Shown: positions 5,233 through 40,493 of the stretch, piece by piece
Layout: every line of letters begins with the position of its first letter
How positions within the stretch are numbered: position 1 is the first letter of the stretch
NCBI GenBank assembly: GCA_937896195.1
Contig: CALBNC010000081.1
Coordinates: 5,218 to 69,217, forward strand
Length of the DNA: 64,000 bases
Origin: an uncultured Gammaproteobacteria bacterium
GTDB taxonomy: Bacteria > Pseudomonadota > Gammaproteobacteria > PS1 > Pseudothioglobaceae
Direction of reading: 5' to 3'
The notes under the pieces: generated by a model
Seen by the model: only the letters and a program-made list of their open reading frames with translations
Databases searched by the model: none
Told to the model about the DNA's origin: nothing
Program-made: the position numbers and the translations under genes

Positions 5233-5658
5233 TTGGATAAATCTGAACAAATTTTGACTTTAATCAAGCCTTTTGTAGATCAAGGGAAAATTCTCCCTAG
5301 AAGTAAGGTGGAAATTGAAAAAAATATCAATGACTTCATCTTGCTATTTGACAACAATCAACTAGTTGCTTGCGCAGGTTTAAAAGATTGTCAAGAAGGC
5401 TCTACGGGTGAAATTTATTCTTTAGCGGTTGCTAAAAATTCTCAAAATTTAGGGCTTTCTACGCAACTCTTAGATAAGATATTAATGGAAGCTAAGAGGC
5501 GAAAATTTAGTAAAGTTTTCGCTCTAACAAAGTATGAAACTGATTGGTTTTTAAAGCATCACTTTACCCAAATGAAAATTTCTGATCTACCTAACAAGCG
5601 TCAAAAATATTTCAACCATGATCGAAACTCTTCTATCTTTTTTAAGGATATTGCTTAA
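5233..5658 (+). CDS. Stand-alone GNAT acetyltransferase resembling the ArgA acetyltransferase domain
   Basis: [34 protein letters not shown] match the ArgA-type GNAT C-terminal domain; no kinase-like domain; TTG start. Confidence 0.7.
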
Positions 5659-6263
5659 TGCAAATCAAAGAACGTATTCGTGGGTATTTACCGGTTGTCA
5701 TTGATATTGAAACCGCTGGATTTAATTATCAAACAGATGCCATGTTAGAAATTTGTGCTGTGATTATTGGTATTGATGACAGTGGAAAACTATACCCAAA
5801 GGAGCCTCAACATTTTCACACGCATCCTTTTAAAGGGTCGAATCTTGAGCCGACAGCTTTAAAGTTTAATGGCATTGATGTTGGCAACCCTCTACGTGGC
5901 GCTATTGATGAAAAGCTAGCACTAAGTGATATGTTCCAAACGATATGCACCGAGATGAAAGACCAAAATTGCTCGCGTTCGATATTAGTAGGGCACAATG
6001 CATCTTTTGACTTAGGATTTTTGTATGCTTCAAGTGAAAGATCAAAGCTTAAAAACCCCTTTCATAAATTCTCTACCATTGATACCGTTAGCTTATCAGC
6101 ACTTACCTTTGGGGAGACGGTTCTGGCTAAAGCAATCGCGAAAGCTGGTATTGAATTTGACAACGCTCAAGCGCATTCTGCCTTGTACGATACAGTTAAA
6201 ACCGCTGAGTTATTTTGTCAGATCTTTAATGCTTTTGAATTTACACCGACACCAAAGAACTGA
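5658..6263 (+). CDS. rnt: Ribonuclease T (DEDDh exonuclease)
   Basis: RIRGYLPVVIDIETAGF, VGHNASFDLGF, AHSALYDT. Confidence 0.93.
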   Translation: MQIKERIRGYLPVVIDIETAGFNYQTDAMLEICAVIIGIDDSGKLYPKEPQHFHTHPFKGSNLEPTALKFNGIDVGNPLRGAIDEKLALSDMFQTICTEMKDQNCSRSILVGHNASFDLGFLYASSERSKLKNPFHKFSTIDTVSLSALTFGETVLAKAIAKAGIEFDNAQAHSALYDTVKTAELFCQIFNAFEFTPTPKN

Positions 6264-7147
6264 TTAAACACCGAGCGCTCTTTTTGTGCTTGATGGATAG
6301 CCATTAACTCAAATCTAACTTTTGCACCTGGTTGTTGTTGTGCCAACTGAGCTAAATCCAGTGAAAATACAGTGCCAATTTTTAAGTATCCGCCAATGGT
6401 TGGTGCATCTTTTAGTAAAATAATTGGCAATCCGTCGCTAGCGATTTCCACACTACCATAACACATACCTTCAGAGATCATTTTGTCTTTTTTGATGGCT
6501 ATGGGTGCGCCTTTTAGCCTACATCCCGTACGATCATTCGCATTGCTAATAGTATAAGTTTGACTAAAGAATAACGTTTTTTGAGCATCACTAAATTCTG
6601 AATATTGATAACTTGGCAATAATCTTAATACAACTTCTTGATGGTAATTAGGCATATATTTTGGCGCAATAAAATGATCTAACTGGCCAATTGATGCTTG
6701 GCATGTAATAATTTCATCTTGTGTTATTTTTGCACCAATGTGTTCACGTAAATTAACCGATCTGGAGTTGAAAAATTTTTGAGTTTCAAACCCACCTTTA
6801 ACTGCTAAATAAGCACGTATTCCGTGTTTAGGTAGATGCCAGCTAAGTCTATCACCTTTTTGAATTTGAATGCTATTCCAAATATCCACCGTTTGATGAT
6901 TAATTTTAAAATCAAGATCCGCACCGCAAACACAAATCAGCATATCATCGAGCGCTTCTAATTCAACACTGCCAAAGGTGATTTCCAGAGCGGCATCAAA
7001 ATAATGATTACCCAGTAAATAATTTCCCCAAGCATAGGCATGCTCATCCATTACCCCAGATTGAGCCAAACCCTGTTCACCATGAGTTAGACGACCATAA
7101 TCTTGAACCGTCGTTAAAAATCCTGGTTTGATAACTTTAAAGCTCAT
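6218..7147 (-). CDS. pxpC: 5-oxoprolinase subunit C (AHS2 / carboxyltransferase family)
   Basis: PGFLTTVQDYGR, SGVMD, RAYLAVKGG, DRTGCRL, DAPTIGGY. Confidence 0.88.
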   Translation of the reverse strand: MSFKVIKPGFLTTVQDYGRLTHGEQGLAQSGVMDEHAYAWGNYLLGNHYFDAALEITFGSVELEALDDMLICVCGADLDFKINHQTVDIWNSIQIQKGDRLSWHLPKHGIRAYLAVKGGFETQKFFNSRSVNLREHIGAKITQDEIITCQASIGQLDHFIAPKYMPNYHQEVVLRLLPSYQYSEFSDAQKTLFFSQTYTISNANDRTGCRLKGAPIAIKKDKMISEGMCYGSVEIASDGLPIILLKDAPTIGGYLKIGTVFSLDLAQLAQQQPGAKVRFELMAIHQAQKERSVFNQFFGVGVNSKALKI

Positions 7148-7827
7148 TCTCGTCCACCATAACGCATAAATTCATCACGGCTAATTGAGTAGAATCTAAC
7201 CTTGTCACCTATCTTAAATTTGTCTAGATTTTTAGGATCGTTAAGTGATAAGTCAAGTATTGTTCTGCCAACAATATTCCAGCCTCCTGATGAATCAATA
7301 GGGTAGACAGCTGTTTGTCTATCAGCGATGCCCACACTACCTGCTGGAATTTTGATTCTTGGTGTGGCTAGGCGAGGTGCTTGAATTTTCTCATCAACCT
7401 GGCCTAAAAATGCAAATACTGGGCTAAATCCAATGGCATAAACTTGGTAGGTTTGCGAAGTATGAATATGGATAAACTCATCTATTGTTAGTTCTTTTTC
7501 AGCCAGCAATTTTTCTAAATCAAGAGCTACTTCAAATCCATAATAAACGGGAATGTGTATCACCTTAGAAATTTGTTCAGCTTGTTCAAAGCTAAATTGT
7601 TCTAGCAATTCGCTAACTTGAGTCTTAAACTGCTGATAATTGGTTTTATTGAGATCGTAATTCACCAAAAGAGAAGTATAAGAGGGTGTTAAATTGACAA
7701 TTGACTCAGAAAAATGCTTTTTAAGCTGATTTGCAAAATTTGCGATATTTCTAGGAAGACTAGGATCGATCTTATTGCCAAAATAGATAAGAAGCGAGCT
7801 TTCCCCCGCAAGTATGATTTTATGCAT
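7144..7827 (-). CDS. pxpB: 5-oxoprolinase subunit B (AHS1/KipI family)
   Basis: PSYTSLLV, IPVYYG, GFSPVFAFLG, PRIKIPAGSVGIA, GGWNIVGRT. Confidence 0.88.
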   Translation of the reverse strand: MHKIILAGESSLLIYFGNKIDPSLPRNIANFANQLKKHFSESIVNLTPSYTSLLVNYDLNKTNYQQFKTQVSELLEQFSFEQAEQISKVIHIPVYYGFEVALDLEKLLAEKELTIDEFIHIHTSQTYQVYAIGFSPVFAFLGQVDEKIQAPRLATPRIKIPAGSVGIADRQTAVYPIDSSGGWNIVGRTILDLSLNDPKNLDKFKIGDKVRFYSISRDEFMRYGGRE

Positions 7828-16764: not shown

Positions 16765-17344
16765 AAAAATACAAACTCATGGTGGCGCCAGAACAGGCGC
16801 AGGTCGTAAGAAAAATTCGGGTAAATTTAAAGAAGATACCAAGGTAATGCGTGTGCCAATTAGCCTAGTAAGAACTGTTAAATCTACTTTAAATATATAT
16901 AAATCTCAATTAAAGTCTGAAATAGAAGTGCTTGAGCCAGACTTTAATGCGCCCAATATTTTTATCCCTATTTTTTCCTCACGTGTACAGGCCGGATTTC
17001 CATCTCCTGCAGATGATCACTTAGAAGACCGTCTTGACTTAAACAAGCATCTAATTCATCATCAGGAGTCTACTTTTTTTGTACGTGCACAAGGTGAATC
17101 AATGTTAAATGCTGGAATTCATCCGGGTGACATTCTGGTAGTGGACAAGTCTCTACTTGCTAAAAGTGGCAAAATAGTTATCGCCGTAGTGGACGGTGAA
17201 TTTACTGTTAAGCGACTACATAAATACAAAGGAAAAATTAGCTTAAAAGCTGAAAATCCAGAATTTAAAGATATTGAAATTAGCGAAGGCAATGAGCTTA
17301 TTATTTGGGGCGTTGTTACGTCAACCATTCATCAATATGCCTAA
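16757..17344 (+). CDS. umuD: UmuD/LexA S24 autopeptidase with N-terminal extension (UmuDAb-like)
   Basis: Cleavage site [11 protein letters not shown], catalytic Ser (GESM) and Lys (TVKRL); extra N-terminal [11 protein letters not shown]...TKVMRVP domain. Confidence 0.9.
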
Positions 17345-18587
17345 ATTCAAAGGGCAAAAATTTGCACTCATTGATTGCAATAATTTCTATGCATCCTGTG
17401 AACGAGTGTTTGAACCTAAATTAGAGAGAGAGCCTATTGTAGTTCTCAGTAACAACGATGGCTGTATTATCGCACGCTCTAATGAAGCTAAATCACTCGG
17501 CATTAAGATGGGTGTGCCGTATTACCAAATGAAAGACTTAATGATTAGTAAATCAGTCGTGGTTAAGTCATCTAATTATCCTTTGTATGGTGACATGTCA
17601 TCTCGAGTAATGAAAGTTATTAGCCAATATTCACCAATACAAGAGGTGTATTCAATTGACGAAAGCTTCTTAGATTTATCAGGCTTTACAATAAACTTGA
17701 ATACATACATGCAAACACTGAAAAACCAGGTTAAATCATGGACGGGTATTCCCGTTTGCGTAGGTATGGGAAGCACAAAGGTACGAGCAAAACTAGCCAA
17801 TCGTATTGCTAAAATTTACCCCAGGTTTAATGGGGTATTTGATATAGACAACTTGCCAATTGAGCGTTTTGAAAAGCTATTAGATTCTTTTGAGGTAGTT
17901 GATATATGGGGTGTTGGAAACAAATCAGCCCAAAAGCTACAGCAGATAGGAATCAACAGTGCTTATGACTTTTACAAAGCTGATATTGGAATTATTGAAA
18001 CCTTATTAGGCGTTAACGGCAAGCGTATATATAGAGAGCTATATGGTTATTCGTGTCTTGCCATAGAAGAAATTGGACCAATTAGGAAGCAAATTGTATC
18101 TTCACGCTCTTTTGGACTCGATTTAAGTGATTTTGACGAGATAAACCAAGCATTAACTAGTTTAACCAGAAAGGCAGTAAATAGGCTTAATCAGAAGTCA
18201 TTAGCAGCCACCTCGATGAGTGTTTTTATTTATACAAACCCTTTTAAGAGAGATATTTCACGCATCAGTCTATCTAAGACTGTTGGCATGATTACACCTA
18301 TTAGCGACGAAAGAGTATTGATACCATTATGTTCAAAGTTACTTAAGCAAATTTACGAACCAGGCTATAAGTTTTATAAGGGCGGGGTTATGTTGGGAAG
18401 CCTAACAACAGATAAAAGCCAACAAGACTTATTTATGGCTAGTAACAAAACTCAATCATTACATAAGCACCCATATGGAAAATTATTACGATATGCGAGC
18501 GAACTTGGTAATGAGCGCTGGCTACCAAGAAGTGATTTTCAATCTAGCAGATTCACGACTGATTGGTCTGAAATATTAAGTGTTTAA
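17337..18587 (+). CDS. umuC: Y-family DNA polymerase V subunit
   Basis: [39 protein letters not shown]-terminal SRFTTDWSE; start MPKF overlaps umuD stop. Confidence 0.93.
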
Positions 18588-18661
18588 AGATATAACCCAA
18601 AAAGTAAGGTTAAATTAGCAGGGGATAGGATAAAAGAGAATTAAATATATAAATATTTTTT

Positions 18662-18689
18662 ATTTAACATAATATAAATTATACGAACT
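18662..18689 (-). other. dif site (XerCD chromosome dimer resolution)
   Basis: Minus strand AGTTCGTATAA-TTTATA-TTATGTTAAAT: XerD arm identical to E. coli dif, XerC arm close, 6-bp spacer. Confidence 0.92.
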
Positions 18690-18719
18690 ATATATAAGTA
18701 ATAAAAAATCAATTAATGA

Positions 18720-19061
18720 CTAGCTTTTACTAAGATTAGTATCGATAAAGTTACGTACAAAGTCCGGAGTTTGTGCTGAATGAAAACGATCAACCTCTTC
18801 ACCATTAATAAAGGCAATAACAGTTGGAAAGCCACGAACAGCATAGCGTCCAGCAATTTTCATATTTTCATCTTCCGCTTCAATTTTAGCCAATAAAAAC
18901 TCTTTCTCATCATACTCCAAAGCTACAGAATTAATGATTGGCTCTAACACGTTGCACGGACCACACCACTCAGCTGAGATATCTAAAACCACTAACCGAT
19001 GGTGAGATTCATCAAGTACAAGCGCTTCAAAATTGTCAACATTAATCTCTAAAGCAGACAT
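18720..19061 (-). CDS. Thioredoxin family protein
   Basis: WCGPC active site, GFPT cis-Pro motif. Confidence 0.88.
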   Translation of the reverse strand: MSALEINVDNFEALVLDESHHRLVVLDISAEWCGPCNVLEPIINSVALEYDEKEFLLAKIEAEDENMKIAGRYAVRGFPTVIAFINGEEVDRFHSAQTPDFVRNFIDTNLSKS

Positions 19062-37021: not shown

Positions 37022-37267
37022 TTAAATTCTCTTAATACCATGATTGTACATTCTTGCTGCCATTTTCAAGCTGTGTGTTTTTGGCTGAAAAAAAGCATGG
37101 CCAATATGCTTGCGGCTTTTTAACCAAGGCTGTACAACTTGAGTATCAACCTTGGTTTTCGCTTGCGTTGCACGAACCAAATCCTTGCTAAAGGATTGTG
37201 CTGCTATAGAGGTTCCAGTTGCTGATAAGGCTTCTGAAACTTCAGCAATCATATTCTTGAACTGCAT
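37022..37267 (-). CDS. Hypothetical protein (81 aa)
   Basis: Strong SD AAGGAG; no recognised domain. Confidence 0.6.
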   Translation of the reverse strand: MQFKNMIAEVSEALSATGTSIAAQSFSKDLVRATQAKTKVDTQVVQPWLKSRKHIGHAFFQPKTHSLKMAARMYNHGIKRI

Positions 37268-37358: not shown

Positions 37359-37853
37359 TCAACGCCAAGTTGGCTTCATATAAACACCAGGTGTTGCTTC
37401 TTCAGCTATAACCTTACCCGGCTCCATCATTGTTCGAATACCTTGATCCATTCCTGGCATCATAAATGAAGACTGAGGCTGCTGATATTGCTTCTGAGGC
37501 TGCATACCTGGATTAAATGGCATCATACTCATCCCACCAAAAGATTGTGCCGGCCTACTAGCTTGACGGCTAGGTGCTGAATTTACTGCCCATGGCATAG
37601 GATTGTAAGCAGGCTGAGAATATCCTTGTCTTGGTGTCGCATATCTAGAGTTAGAATATCTAGGCTGAGAGTAACCTTGAGCTCCCCACGGCATAGAATT
37701 ACCAAAAGGTTGCATTTGAGGCTGGGAAACACCCTGCCCACCAAATGGCGACATCATCGAAGACGGATTGCTAAAATTGGCACTCGACAAGGTACTAATA
37801 GCTAATGTTAGCCCTAAGCAAGTTTTGATAATATGGTGTCTTGTGTTTTTCAT
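37359..37853 (-). CDS. Secreted Pro/Gln/Gly/Ser/Met-rich low-complexity protein (candidate sulfur globule/structural protein A)
   Basis: SD GAGGAG, Sec signal ending LSSA, repeats QG(Y/V)SQP and MPW. Confidence 0.7.
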   Translation of the reverse strand: MKNTRHHIIKTCLGLTLAISTLSSANFSNPSSMMSPFGGQGVSQPQMQPFGNSMPWGAQGYSQPRYSNSRYATPRQGYSQPAYNPMPWAVNSAPSRQASRPAQSFGGMSMMPFNPGMQPQKQYQQPQSSFMMPGMDQGIRTMMEPGKVIAEEATPGVYMKPTWR

Positions 37854-37942
37854 GTCGATTCTCCTCAAGAATTAAATAGTATTAGATTGAACTATACACT
37901 GGAGCAATAATCGATATAAGCTATTTTTAGTTATTTAGCGCA

Positions 37943-38341
37943 TTAAGATTTATTTTTATTGTCCCAATAATTAGCGCGATCTTTTAAGATCCAGCGAACA
38001 CCGCCTTTAGGATTTTCAACATCACCTTTGTAACGTGGAATTAAATGCACATGCAAATGTTTAATACTTTGCCCAGCCATTTCTCCATTGTTAACACCGA
38101 TATTGTAAGCATCAGGCCTGAATTCTTTGTCAAGAATTAATTTTGCTTTTTGCACGGCAATACCAATTGCCAATAACTCCGCCTCGCTCGCCTCAAAGTA
38201 AGTTGCAAAGTGGCGCTTTGGAATGACCAAAGTATGGCCAGGAGAAGCTGGAAAATTATCAATAAAAGTAATGGTTAAATCGCATTCACCAATAATTCTT
38301 TCTTGATTTTTTAATTCACAAAACAAGCATTCTGTTGTCAT
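37943..38341 (-). CDS. HIT family nucleotide hydrolase
   Basis: CLFC, PASPGHTLVIPKRH, AGQSIKHLHVHLIPRY. Confidence 0.92.
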   Translation of the reverse strand: MTTECLFCELKNQERIIGECDLTITFIDNFPASPGHTLVIPKRHFATYFEASEAELLAIGIAVQKAKLILDKEFRPDAYNIGVNNGEMAGQSIKHLHVHLIPRYKGDVENPKGGVRWILKDRANYWDNKNKS

Positions 38342-38427
38342 ATTGCCACCTGGCTTAAAAGATAAATAATTTGGACGACAATTTTACCTCAATCAAACAT
38401 CAAATATTGAAGCGCTTTTTTAGACGC

Positions 38428-38455
38428 AAAAAAGCCGGCTATTAACCGGCTTTTT
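38428..38455 (-). terminator. Terminator after secreted proteins C-B
   Basis: AAAAAGCCGG-CTATTAA-CCGGCTTTTT. Confidence 0.85.
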
Positions 38456-38472
38456 CTTAAACAACTAAAGAC

Positions 38473-39072
38473 TTACTTGGTTGTTTCTGCTGCTGGTGGT
38501 GTGTCTGATTCAGCTGTAGCAGGAATTACTTGGTTGTAACCATAGTTCCAAGGTCCGTTTTTCATTGGTCCAAAAGAATTTGAACCTGTATCAAAACCAA
38601 ATGGAGATGCACCTGTACCCATGTTAAATGGCTGAGAGTTATTGCCACCATTAAACGGGTTAAAGTTTGTATCTGCCTTCATTGGGCCAAAGCTATTACC
38701 GTTACTCCAAGGAGTGTTGTTAAAGCTATTAGTATTCATTGGCATGTTGTTAGTATTCATTGGCATGTTGTTAGTATTCATTGGCATGTTTTTACTCCAA
38801 TTATTGCTATTTGACCAAGGACCATTATTAAAATTACCACCATTCATTGGAACATTTTTACTCCAGCTATTTGTATTTGACCAAGGGCCATTGTTAAAGC
38901 TTTGTCCATTCCAAGGGCCGTTGTTAAAATTACCAAAGTTGTTAGCATTGCCACCGTTACTCCAAGGCGTGTTGTTGCCAAAGTTTGTAGGATTGTTGCT
39001 ATTCCAGTTATTGCTAAAAGCAGATGCACCAAGTGCAACTGTCATTAATGTGATTACGATTATTTTTTTCAT
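38473..39072 (-). CDS. Secreted Asn/Gly/Pro/Trp-rich repeat protein (candidate B)
   Basis: Signal MKKIIVITLMTVALGASA, repeats FNNGPW / NNTPWSNG / NMPMNTN, Pro/Ala tail. Confidence 0.75.
   Translation of the reverse strand: MKKIIVITLMTVALGASAFSNNWNSNNPTNFGNNTPWSNGGNANNFGNFNNGPWNGQSFNNGPWSNTNSWSKNVPMNGGNFNNGPWSNSNNWSKNMPMNTNNMPMNTNNMPMNTNSFNNTPWSNGNSFGPMKADTNFNPFNGGNNSQPFNMGTGASPFGFDTGSNSFGPMKNGPWNYGYNQVIPATAESDTPPAAETTK
38729..38790. repeat. 21-bp tandem repeat x3 inside protein B (encodes NMPMNTN)
   Basis: TTAGTATTCATTGGCATGTTG at 38729, 38750 and 38771 (third copy 20 of 21 bp). Confidence 0.95.
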
Positions 39073-39095
39073 GATTTTTCCTTGTTTTATTAAGT

Positions 39096-39515
39096 TTATC
39101 TTGCTTGTGTGTTACTTACAGGTGTTGCATTGTTCATTGGTCTAAATGAATTATTACGGAAATTAAATGGCTGTGAGTTACCTCGCAAGCCTTGATTCCA
39201 GTTGTTATTTTGCCAAGGTACGCTTCCGCTCTGGTTGCGGCCATTCCATGGGCCACTGTTATTATTCCAAGGTCTGTTGTTATAACCATTGGAATTCCAA
39301 GGTGTGCTGTTTGTATCGAACTCATCCATCATGTCGTCCATTTCTTCACTAAACCAATCAGGTGTGAAAAAAGAATTTGGATTATGAGCAACAAAGCCAT
39401 TATTGGTGTTATTAGAATTACTACCCCAACCATTGTTTCCCCATGGATTGTTGCCATAATTAGCTGATGCACTAATTGCTAAAGTCATTAACGATGCTGT
39501 TATTATTCTTTTCAT
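39096..39515 (-). CDS. Secreted Asn/Gly/Trp-rich protein (candidate C)
   Basis: SD AAGGAG, signal ending ISASA, PW-N repeats, acidic motif TPDWFSEEMDDMMDEFD. Confidence 0.75.
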   Translation of the reverse strand: MKRIITASLMTLAISASANYGNNPWGNNGWGSNSNNTNNGFVAHNPNSFFTPDWFSEEMDDMMDEFDTNSTPWNSNGYNNRPWNNNSGPWNGRNQSGSVPWQNNNWNQGLRGNSQPFNFRNNSFRPMNNATPVSNTQAR

Positions 39516-39588
39516 CTGTCTCCTTATTTTTAATATTGGTTAATATTAACCTTAATTATAAACCACTTAAACTAATTGAATGGGCGAA

Positions 39589-39618
39589 AAAAAACCAGTA
39601 ACAAAATACTGGTTTTTT
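39589..39618 (-). terminator. Terminator after secreted protein D
   Basis: AAAAAACCAGTA-ACAAAA-TACTGGTTTTTT. Confidence 0.85.
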
Positions 39619-39634
39619 CTAAACTAACTAAAAC

Positions 39635-39985
39635 TTACTTAGTTGGTGCAACTGGAGCTTGAAGCGCCTGTGAACTATTCCAAGGATTGTTTGAGCTATT
39701 GTATGGGTTATAACCATTGAAGTTATTATTGTTCCAACCGTTGTTGTTGTTATTGAATTCATCATCAAACTTGTCTACCATGTTTGACATTTCTTCCATG
39801 TACCAACGTGGATCCCAGTAATCGTATGAGTTGTAACCAAACATACCGTTATCTTCTTGGTAGCCATTGTTGTTGCTGTAATTGTTGTTGCTGTAATTGT
39901 TGTTCCACGGCATATCGTTGCTGTTAAAAAATGCGTTTGCGCTTAAAGAAGCTGCGATTAATGCTATTGCTAAAAGTTTTTTCAT
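39635..39985 (-). CDS. Secreted Asn/Tyr-rich protein (candidate D)
   Basis: Signal ending LSANA, NNNYS repeats, motif DPRWYMEEMSNMVDKFDDEF, tail QAPVAPTK. Confidence 0.78.
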   Translation of the reverse strand: MKKLLAIALIAASLSANAFFNSNDMPWNNNYSNNNYSNNNGYQEDNGMFGYNSYDYWDPRWYMEEMSNMVDKFDDEFNNNNNGWNNNNFNGYNPYNSSNNPWNSSQALQAPVAPTK

Positions 39986-40061
39986 GACCTTATCTCCATA
40001 TCTAAAATTAAAGAAACTATATTATACCATGATAATATAGACTTGCAAGCTTTAATTATTA

Positions 40062-40493
40062 TTAAAATCCATTACCATAAGGATTTCTTGGTTCAGAAAA
40101 ATTGTAATTAGATGGATATGGGCCTGATAAATTGCGTACTGGCGATGAGGCTTTGTTATTTAAATTAGAGAATGACATGGCTGCTGGCGTCATATAAATT
40201 GGGCTTGGCGCTTGCTGTGATTCAGCCTGAAATGCCTGATTAGGCGTGGGCATATTGGCCATATTGAATTGCGAAGCGCCAACATTGTAAGGGCGATTAT
40301 TGTAAGGATAGCCATATTGAGTGTTTTTGTTATCTGAAAATGGGCTATTATTTTTGGCTTTATCCATCCAAAACATGGGTGTCCAAACTGGCCAATCATT
40401 GTTTTTATAGTCATCACCATAGCTATTAAAATCTAAAAATGCTTGTGCATTAAAACTCATGATCGTTAATCCGACTAATAATATTTTTTTCAT
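40062..40493 (-). CDS. Secreted Asn/Pro/Tyr-rich protein (candidate E)
   Basis: SD AAGGA, start MKKILL, signal ending NAQA, WPVWTPMFWMDK, YGYPYNNRPY. Confidence 0.72.
   Translation of the reverse strand: MKKILLVGLTIMSFNAQAFLDFNSYGDDYKNNDWPVWTPMFWMDKAKNNSPFSDNKNTQYGYPYNNRPYNVGASQFNMANMPTPNQAFQAESQQAPSPIYMTPAAMSFSNLNNKASSPVRNLSGPYPSNYNFSEPRNPYGNGF

Follow-up and report, generated by a model that had tools for sequence, protein, structure and literature searches.

We propose that five small genes in a SUP05 genome, here called A to E, encode exported proteins that are disordered and serve as structural parts of the sulfur globule in the periplasm. We hold this assignment with moderate confidence, and within it A to E most likely play an accessory or minor part in the coat and do not form its bulk. 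The genes lie at 37359 to 40493 of the window, a 64,000-nucleotide stretch of contig CALBNC010000081.1 (assembly GCA_937896195.1), and all positions below are those of the window unless another sequence is named. The host belongs to Candidatus Thioglobus (SUP05), and its genome is 1.42 Mb in size and 99.98% complete. Three lines of evidence carry the proposal: C, D, and E share a short acidic motif with proteins that databases label as sulfur globule proteins, this motif family tracks dsrA across the Gammaproteobacteria, and the host has the genotype of a sulfur-storing oxidizer.

Genes A to E encode exported low-complexity proteins

A first-pass annotation of the sequence had described five co-directional genes, each with a Shine-Dalgarno (SD) sequence and a signal peptide, four of the peptides ending in A-x-A. 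The open reading frames (ORFs) were confirmed at the same coordinates, all on the minus strand, as were the SD sequences and the cleavage ends. The SD sequences (GAGGAG, AAGGA, AAGGAG, GGAG/AAGG, and AAGGA across the five genes) lie 5-10 nt 5' of each ATG. Each signal peptide has a K/R-rich n-region and a hydrophobic core, and ends in SSA (A), ASA (B and C), ANA (D), or AQA (E). The signal peptide of A holds a Cys without a lipobox, and we rejected a lipoprotein reading of this protein.

The mature chains of A to E are 11.7-19.7 kDa, Cys-free, and strongly depleted in Leu, Ile, and Val; a Sec signal peptide and a small mature size (~10-20 kDa) are also features of the Pfam SGP type. The repeats FNNGPW, NNNYS, and QGYSQP and the tail QAPVAPTK, which the annotation had picked out together with the Cys-free, low-complexity composition, were all located in cluster proteins. 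Asn makes up 17-30% of mature B to E, compared with 4.9% in the long ORFs of this genome, and mature A is rich in P/Q/S/M (14/12/13/11%). Aromatic residues account for 12-20% of mature A to E, and His for 0-0.9%. We also ran a crude composition screen over the whole genome, requiring a signal peptide, at least 60% N/G/P/W/Y/Q/S/M, and at most 8% L/I/V/C. Besides A to E, the screen returned a single gene, which belongs to a second family and lies on another contig; the clustering of the five genes is therefore not due to chance.

An AlphaFold2 model of D, computed with its alignment, reached a pLDDT of 49.6, with a short helix at residues 68-77 in the acidic core and disorder elsewhere. A PDB sequence search with a D/C profile returned nothing, and Pfam and NCBIfam scans of A to E returned nothing meaningful.

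C, D, and E are profile-level relatives of proteins labeled as sulfur globule protein CV1

We compared the cluster with other proteins by using two profiles, A1, built from D and C, and A2, the reverse profile, built from a family labeled as sulfur globule proteins. Against 1.84 billion protein representatives, A1 matched only 71 cluster representatives, among them P0144 (E 8e-4 at this database size), whose close relatives bear the NCBI name "sulfur globule protein" or "sulfur globule protein CV1." UniRef names Ruthia orthologues of D "Sulfur globule protein CV1" (A1AWF5, Rmag_0508). The distant A1 matches carry NPYDEWDPRYWMEEMEDM followed by Gly/Tyr repeats; their full layout is a signal peptide, a W/G/N head, NPYDEWDPRYWMEEMEDMxDDDD, (GGYGxPY)n, and a Pro/Ala tail. 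We refer to this labeled family as class II. In a direct comparison of the A1 and A2 alignments, hhalign returned 99.1% (E 9e-19), a profile-profile score to which the signal peptide contributes a part. In the host genome, A2 picked out E (3.8e-8) and D (3.6e-6), and the D-family profile matched C (E 2.7e-20).

The element in common is the acidic core of class II, YDxWDPR[YW][WY]xEEMxxMxD or DWPxWTPM[YF]WM[ED], which is present in C, D, and E and absent from A and B. In the cluster the core reads YDxWDPRWYxEEMxxMxDxFD, with the form WPVWTPMFWM in E, where it matches the class II sub-variant DWPEWTPMYWMEE. Labeled class II members (for example, the metagenome-assembled genome (MAG) proteins P0168, P0169, and P0193 of NCBI) and C, D, and E agree in several features: the signal peptide ends in A-x-A and F or W follows, the acidic core is Met-rich (N.YD.WDPRYWMEEM.DM.DDDD or DWPEWTPMYWMEE), aromatic residues mark the repeats, and the tail is of the Pro/Ala kind. 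The labeled proteins have (GGGYGxPY)n repeats, whereas the SUP05 proteins have Asn-rich N-x-W/Y/F repeats instead, and a Cys pair before the core of the labeled proteins is missing in SUP05. At the profile level, C, D, and E are divergent relatives of class II, a family whose defining layout places an acidic Met-rich core between a signal peptide plus Asn/Gly/Trp head and aromatic repeats plus a Pro/Ala tail. There is no Pfam or NCBIfam model for class II, and NCBIfam has none for Sgp-named proteins. The four class II members scanned do not match PF17228, the Pfam SGP model, so the database name "CV1," which comes from the characterized protein SgpA, is no more than a label here. We know of no class II member that has been shown experimentally on globules.

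The composition of class II varies with the GC content of the genome in the spacer and not in the aromatic residues. Aromatics stay constant at 15-23% across relatives, while the spacer shifts from 33-47% Gly+Ala+Pro at GC 0.44-0.61 to 27-30% Asn at GC 0.37. Gly+Ala+Pro amounts to 14-20% in the cluster versus 33-47% in the three Gly/Tyr-rich class II relatives that were counted. The Asn richness that had been called "prion-like" is better explained as Asn replacing a Gly/Ala/Pro spacer in a 37% GC genome. That aromatic content is constant while the spacer changes suggests that composition and the acidic Met-rich motif carry the function, not a fold. In several class II relatives (P0169, P0162, and others), the (GGGYGQPY)n repeats exceed the cut-off of Pfam Prion_octapep (PF03991; 41 versus 32 bits); this match is a compositional false positive that has been propagated in public precomputed annotations.

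Orthologue alignments reveal conserved, non-repetitive cores in D (GYQEDNGMFGYNPYDYWDPRWYMEEMSNMVDEFDDEF), C (NNGFIAHNPYSMFTPDWFSEEMDDMMDEFD), and E. Conservation in E extends along the full length, following the pattern AFLDFNSYG..NDWPVWTPMFWMEK..YGYPYNNRPYN..MPTPDQA..TPAA.SF. In B, the head and the tail are conserved in 19 orthologues and the repeat number varies. The NNMPMNT unit of B (38750-38815) is present in three copies here and in at least four in the closest relative (L002), its number varying between strains. D is the most widely kept member of the cluster, and reduced clam symbionts retain mainly D. In the clam-symbiont genus g13, E is decaying: one genome (G067:C1:482121-482537) has 13 in-frame stops, and another (G059:C1:486504-486623) keeps a 40-residue remnant. 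D is kept in all clam-symbiont genomes of this genus despite the decay of E.

Relatives of the cluster track dsrA, and the host has a sulfur-storage genotype

We examined a class-wide sample of 301 gammaproteobacterial genomes from 271 genera, mostly with one genome per genus. dsrA was found in 21 of the 22 A2-positive genomes, compared with 92/301 overall (Fisher p = 5e-11). PF17228 served as a positive control; it matched 41/301 genomes, and 37 of these carry dsrA. Six of the A2 matches are cross-matches to PF17228 proteins through their repeats. The remaining A2-positive genomes are all dsrA+ and include six from outside the Thioglobaceae without PF17228, the class II motif itself having been read directly only in G306, G197, and G130.

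Within the Thioglobaceae, 69 genomes have a strong D/C match, and 64 of them have dsrA. Homologues of D occur in Ca. Thioglobus/SUP05, in Bathymodiolus symbionts, and in the clam symbionts Ruthia and Vesicomyosocius. A is present in 28/122 Thioglobaceae genomes from four genera, all of them dsrA+, and has no relatives in 300 other Gammaproteobacteria; neither A nor B has detectable relatives outside the lineage. The first-pass annotation had proposed asking whether the proteins are equally present in relatives that do not store sulfur. A, C/D, and E are all absent from genus g12 (43 genomes), which also lacks dsrA; this check thus does not refute the sulfur-globule reading, although it amounts to one phylogenetic event.

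The host is a SUP05 sulfur oxidizer: dsrA and soxB are present in its genome, and soxC was not found there. A truncated Sox system together with rDsr is the genotype that passes through stored zero-valent sulfur. In the congener EF1, periplasmic sulfur globules have been imaged by cryo-electron tomography, and stored sulfur lets SUP05 cross oxic-anoxic boundaries (PMC6509183).

Evidence against a globule role and alternative explanations

A number of results weigh against the globule assignment. PF17228 (gathering score 26.7 bits) matched none of A to E, even at E<=10, and a six-frame search found it in 0/122 Thioglobaceae genomes. A and B lack homology support and are linked to Sgp by composition and neighborhood only; for the others, the signal peptide contributes a part of the profile-profile score given above. 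A to E are strongly hydrophilic, with a grand average of hydropathy (GRAVY) of -0.9 to -1.6, and Asn-rich in B to E, whereas SgpA and SgpB of Allochromatium vinosum are Gly/Tyr-rich and the Sgps of that species are described as extremely hydrophobic (PMC10386293). A profile search for A. vinosum SgpA/B/C returned no named Allochromatium protein in the best 120 of 494 matches. The tie from the cluster to experimentally proven Sgps is indirect, through database names and shared architecture. That architecture comprises a signal peptide, an N/G/W head, an acidic middle, and aromatic repeats in both PF17228 and cluster proteins, and the APVAPVAPAAP..K type of tail in PF17228 has the same style as APVAP...K in D and B. 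The central motif of PF17228, GDGxGDFDFNMSG (an acidic Met/Phe middle), differs from that of class II and the cluster. A to E are also without the Gly/Tyr-rich (YGAPYG)n repeats of the PF17228 type; their repeats are Asn-based (FNNGPW, NNNYS), with a similar aromatic content.

The proteome of EF1 adds to these points. The EF1 genome (G088) carries all five genes, and its SSB matches published peptides. The HIT-family gene of the locus is SP60_00070 and metH is SP60_00100; we assigned the E orthologue to SP60_00095 because its length matches (145 aa) and its position adjoins metH, and the tags of A to D were inferred by gene order to fall within SP60_00065-00090. In the published whole-cell proteome (the complete "normalized proteins" sheet), E was detected with five spectra, only in oxic, globule-rich EF1 cells, and none of the tags in the range expected for A to D are listed. 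By comparison, a second family, F, encoded by three tandem genes by icd (SP60_00725/30/35; 176, 174, and 171 aa), gave 646, 311, and 813 spectra. These proteins rank among the most abundant in EF1 and are 60-160 times more abundant than E, the only detected cluster member. The weak detection of A to E could reflect low abundance. It could also be technical, since many N-G sites are prone to deamidation and mature D of EF1 has a single internal tryptic cleavage site.

The co-distribution within the Thioglobaceae is essentially one phylogenetic event, that is, one genus without everything, so that a correlation just as strong is to be expected for whatever trait autotrophic SUP05 have in common. 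Furthermore, two Thioglobaceae genomes that are 99-100% complete (G005 and G117) have D- and F-family genes and no dsrA match at E<=1e-30; these are either assembly gaps or real exceptions to the co-distribution.

These observations bear most directly on the possibility that A to E are generic disordered proteins of the periplasm or envelope in autotrophic SUP05 (spacers, S-layer or outer-membrane tethers, or stress/hydration proteins) with no role in sulfur storage, and that the dsr correlation reflects ancestry. The one-genus association, the four of five orthologues undetected in globule-forming EF1 cells, the missing PF17228 match, and the two genomes with D but no dsrA match are all what this explanation would predict. 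It does not account for the class II motif family being 95% confined to dsrA+ genomes across the 271 genera, for a repeat and tail architecture in common with true SGP proteins, or for two independent databases naming members Sgp, and we consider it unlikely.

We give still less weight to the idea that the proteins, at least A (11% Met, MMPxM) and B (NMPMNT), bind or buffer Cu(I)/Ag(I) in the periplasm. Their Met enrichment and MxM/MPM spacing resemble the Met-rich segments of periplasmic copper proteins, and the invariant Met-rich C terminus of A points to some specific ligand or partner; however, the Pfam/NCBIfam scans returned no copper-protein family, His is essentially absent and Cys wholly so, and no cop or cus gene is found among the immediate neighbors HIT, yaiI, ssb, and metH. 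Least probable is the first-pass annotation's other option, functional amyloid or a phase-separated matrix outside the cell or in the periplasm, for which the Asn-rich composition, the predicted disorder, and the Prion_octapep matches of the Gly/Tyr-repeat relatives would speak, but the Pfam/NCBIfam scans of A to E (secretion genes were not searched genome-wide) showed no curli/Fap signature (CsgA, FapC) or related family, AlphaFold2 predicts disorder and one short helix without beta structure, Asn richness follows low GC at constant aromatics, and condensation on a sulfur surface would itself equal the globule-coat model.

On these results the sulfur-globule reading of the first-pass annotation is partly supported. 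The family link of C, D, and E, the tracking of dsrA, and the host genotype stand; the PF17228 search, the homology of A and B, and the proteome do not lend it support. The suggested hidden Markov model comparison with Sgp families was likewise divided, negative for PF17228 and positive for the profile similarity of C, D, and E to labeled class II proteins.

The F family is the probable main coat

F proteins consist of a signal peptide, (GGxNMGPF)n repeats, and a C-terminal Ala/Lys/Asp repeat of the ADAYAKGQADAFAK type. The F-family genes gave five matches in EF1 at 75-89% identity, three of which are the tandem icd-adjacent genes. Counterparts in the host (G000) were assigned by icd synteny and matching lengths; they lie on contig C127 at 17339-17860 and 18330-18851, with a third copy truncated where the contig ends (in the coordinates of L060, the copies are at 5340-5861, 6331-6855, and 6977-7177), and further copies are found on C114 and C83. 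Two F proteins, scanned along with A, B, D, E, and four class II members, showed no PF17228 match. The F family occurs in 73/122 Thioglobaceae genomes, nearly all of them dsrA+.

The EF1 study reported four putative sgp genes, three of them detected (PMC6509183), and the word "sgp" is absent from its supplement. Since abundance and copy number fit, the "Sgp" of Shah et al. 2019 (PMC6509183) are probably the F genes and not this cluster. Searches of the literature on Rmag_0508 and on SUP05/Ruthia sgp turned up only that paper. F proteins are probably the leading candidates for the globule coat in SUP05. Because F is abundant in the proteome and A to E are barely or not detected, the bulk of the coat is more likely to consist of F.

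F proteins and cluster proteins have in common an export signal (ASA/FFGN.., the slash marking cleavage), an Asn/Gly/Met/Pro/Phe repeat style, and a dsrA-linked distribution. The F family is without the WDPRWY core, which cluster members C, D, and E possess. In the Thioglobaceae MAG BH20 (L056, 4269-6261), three exported proteins are encoded in a row: a 188-aa protein with an N/W-rich head, an F protein, and a minimal D-like protein of 86 aa, which stops directly behind its DPRWMLEEMSNVID core. This F gene adjoining a minimal D-like gene in one genome links both sets.

Organization of the locus

Table 1. Coordinates of the cluster genes, their conserved cores, and neighboring features in the window (a slash marks signal peptide cleavage)
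Feature	Position	Strand	Details
Gene A	37359..37853	-	164 aa; signal peptide ..LSSA/NF; mature 15.4 kDa, pI 10; P/Q/S/M-rich
C-terminal 35 residues of A, FMMPGMDQGIRxMMEPGKIMAEEATPGVYMKPTWR	37362..37466	-	near-invariant; six-orthologue alignment
HIT-family hydrolase gene (cytoplasmic)	37943..38341	-	PF01230, E 2.6e-24; between A and B
Intrinsic terminator 3' of B (closes C-B unit)	38428..38456	-	-16.6 kcal/mol, z -3.7, then T-run
Gene B	38473..39072	-	199 aa; signal peptide ..GASA/FS; 28% Asn; FNNGPWSN + NNMPMNT repeats
Gene C	39096..39515	-	139 aa; signal peptide ..SASA/NY; Asn/Trp/Gly-rich; D paralogue
Acidic Met-rich core of C (FFTPDWFSEEMDDMMDEFD)	39315..39371	-	invariant in 24 orthologues
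Intrinsic terminator 3' of D	39588..39621	-	-15.4 kcal/mol, z -5.1, then T-run
Gene D	39635..39985	-	116 aa; signal peptide ..SANA/FF; 30% Asn; 20% aromatic; tail QAPVAPTK
Conserved core of D (GYQEDNGMFGYNSYDYWDPRWYMEEMSNMVDKFDDEF)	39755..39865	-	aligns to NxYDEWDPRYWMEEMEDMxDDDD of Gly/Tyr-rich sulfur-globule-labeled family
Promoter-like site 5' of D	40021..40048	-	TTGCAA-16-TGnTATAAT; consensus match only
Gene E	40062..40493	-	143 aa; signal peptide ..NAQA/FL; divergent from metH
Core of E (NNDWPVWTPMFWMDK)	40359..40403	-	variant of DWPEWTPMYWMEE motif from other class II members

The five genes had been described as one cluster containing two strong terminators. Both terminators, after B and after D, were missed by a simple consensus scan and confirmed by folding as a hairpin followed by a T-run. 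The number of genes holds, but their contiguity does not, as a HIT gene between A and B had been overlooked; this gene is a neighbor and is not counted in the A to E system. C and B are spaced by 23 nt and have a single terminator in common. The transcription units are E, D, C-B, HIT, and A: the block comprises several units because the HIT gene interrupts it and D has its own terminator and promoter-like match. The HIT gene and the pair of terminators inside the block led us to reject a one-operon reading.

Free-living SUP05 and mussel symbionts have the gene order metH-E-D-C-B-HIT-(A-yaiI-ssb) in common. The tail of B is made of Pro, Ala, and Thr, with K as the last residue. An 81-aa ORF with a strong SD (AAGGAGAAAATATG) lies just downstream of A on the minus strand (37022-37267).

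Discussion

The general idea of globule proteins in SUP05 is already in the literature, and the cluster adds a divergent group of Asn-rich members to this kind of system. In the mechanism that we propose, the proteins would be exported by Sec and cleaved after A-x-A, and the disordered chains would adsorb to the surface of zero-valent sulfur via W, Y, F, and Met. Spacer residues, Asn here and Gly/Ala/Pro in GC-rich relatives, would keep the chain extended, and the acidic helix may face the periplasm or mediate contacts between coat proteins. As accessory proteins, A to E would act in nucleation, in the control of size, or in contacts within the coat. A and B are additions specific to this lineage and are placed in the system by neighborhood and co-distribution only. 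A model of such a minor coat component is SgpD (Alvin_2515) of A. vinosum, an exported accessory globule protein that is dispensable for globule formation (PMC10386293). It is likened to the cluster proteins by description and not by sequence, and is reported as Chromatiaceae-restricted with long, confidently predicted helices.

More tentatively, the WDPRWY-EEM core could define a second globule-coat family ("class II Sgp") across Gammaproteobacteria of the rDsr type, one not recognized so far, with the SUP05 cluster as an extreme case in which the spacers have been recoded to Asn in an AT-rich genome. We regard this extension as possible and no better than that. If it is true, the coat would work by composition and one short anchoring or nucleating motif, without a fold; what is retained would be the acidic helix and the "stickers," namely aromatic and Met residues, and A and B would act as additional coat or globule-size factors specific to the lineage. 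The "prion-like" Asn richness and the Prion_octapep matches in relatives are compositional artefacts and give no evidence of amyloid.

In oxygen-minimum zones, as in symbioses at vents and seeps, SUP05 are the dominant sulfur oxidizers and dark carbon fixers. The Pfam SGP model matches nothing in the lineage and so does not reveal which proteins build its globules. Our analysis offers a candidate set in which D, C, and E carry a diagnostic motif, A and B are specific to the lineage, and the F family is abundant. The motif is a searchable signature, which may be used for annotating globule-coat genes in metagenomes.

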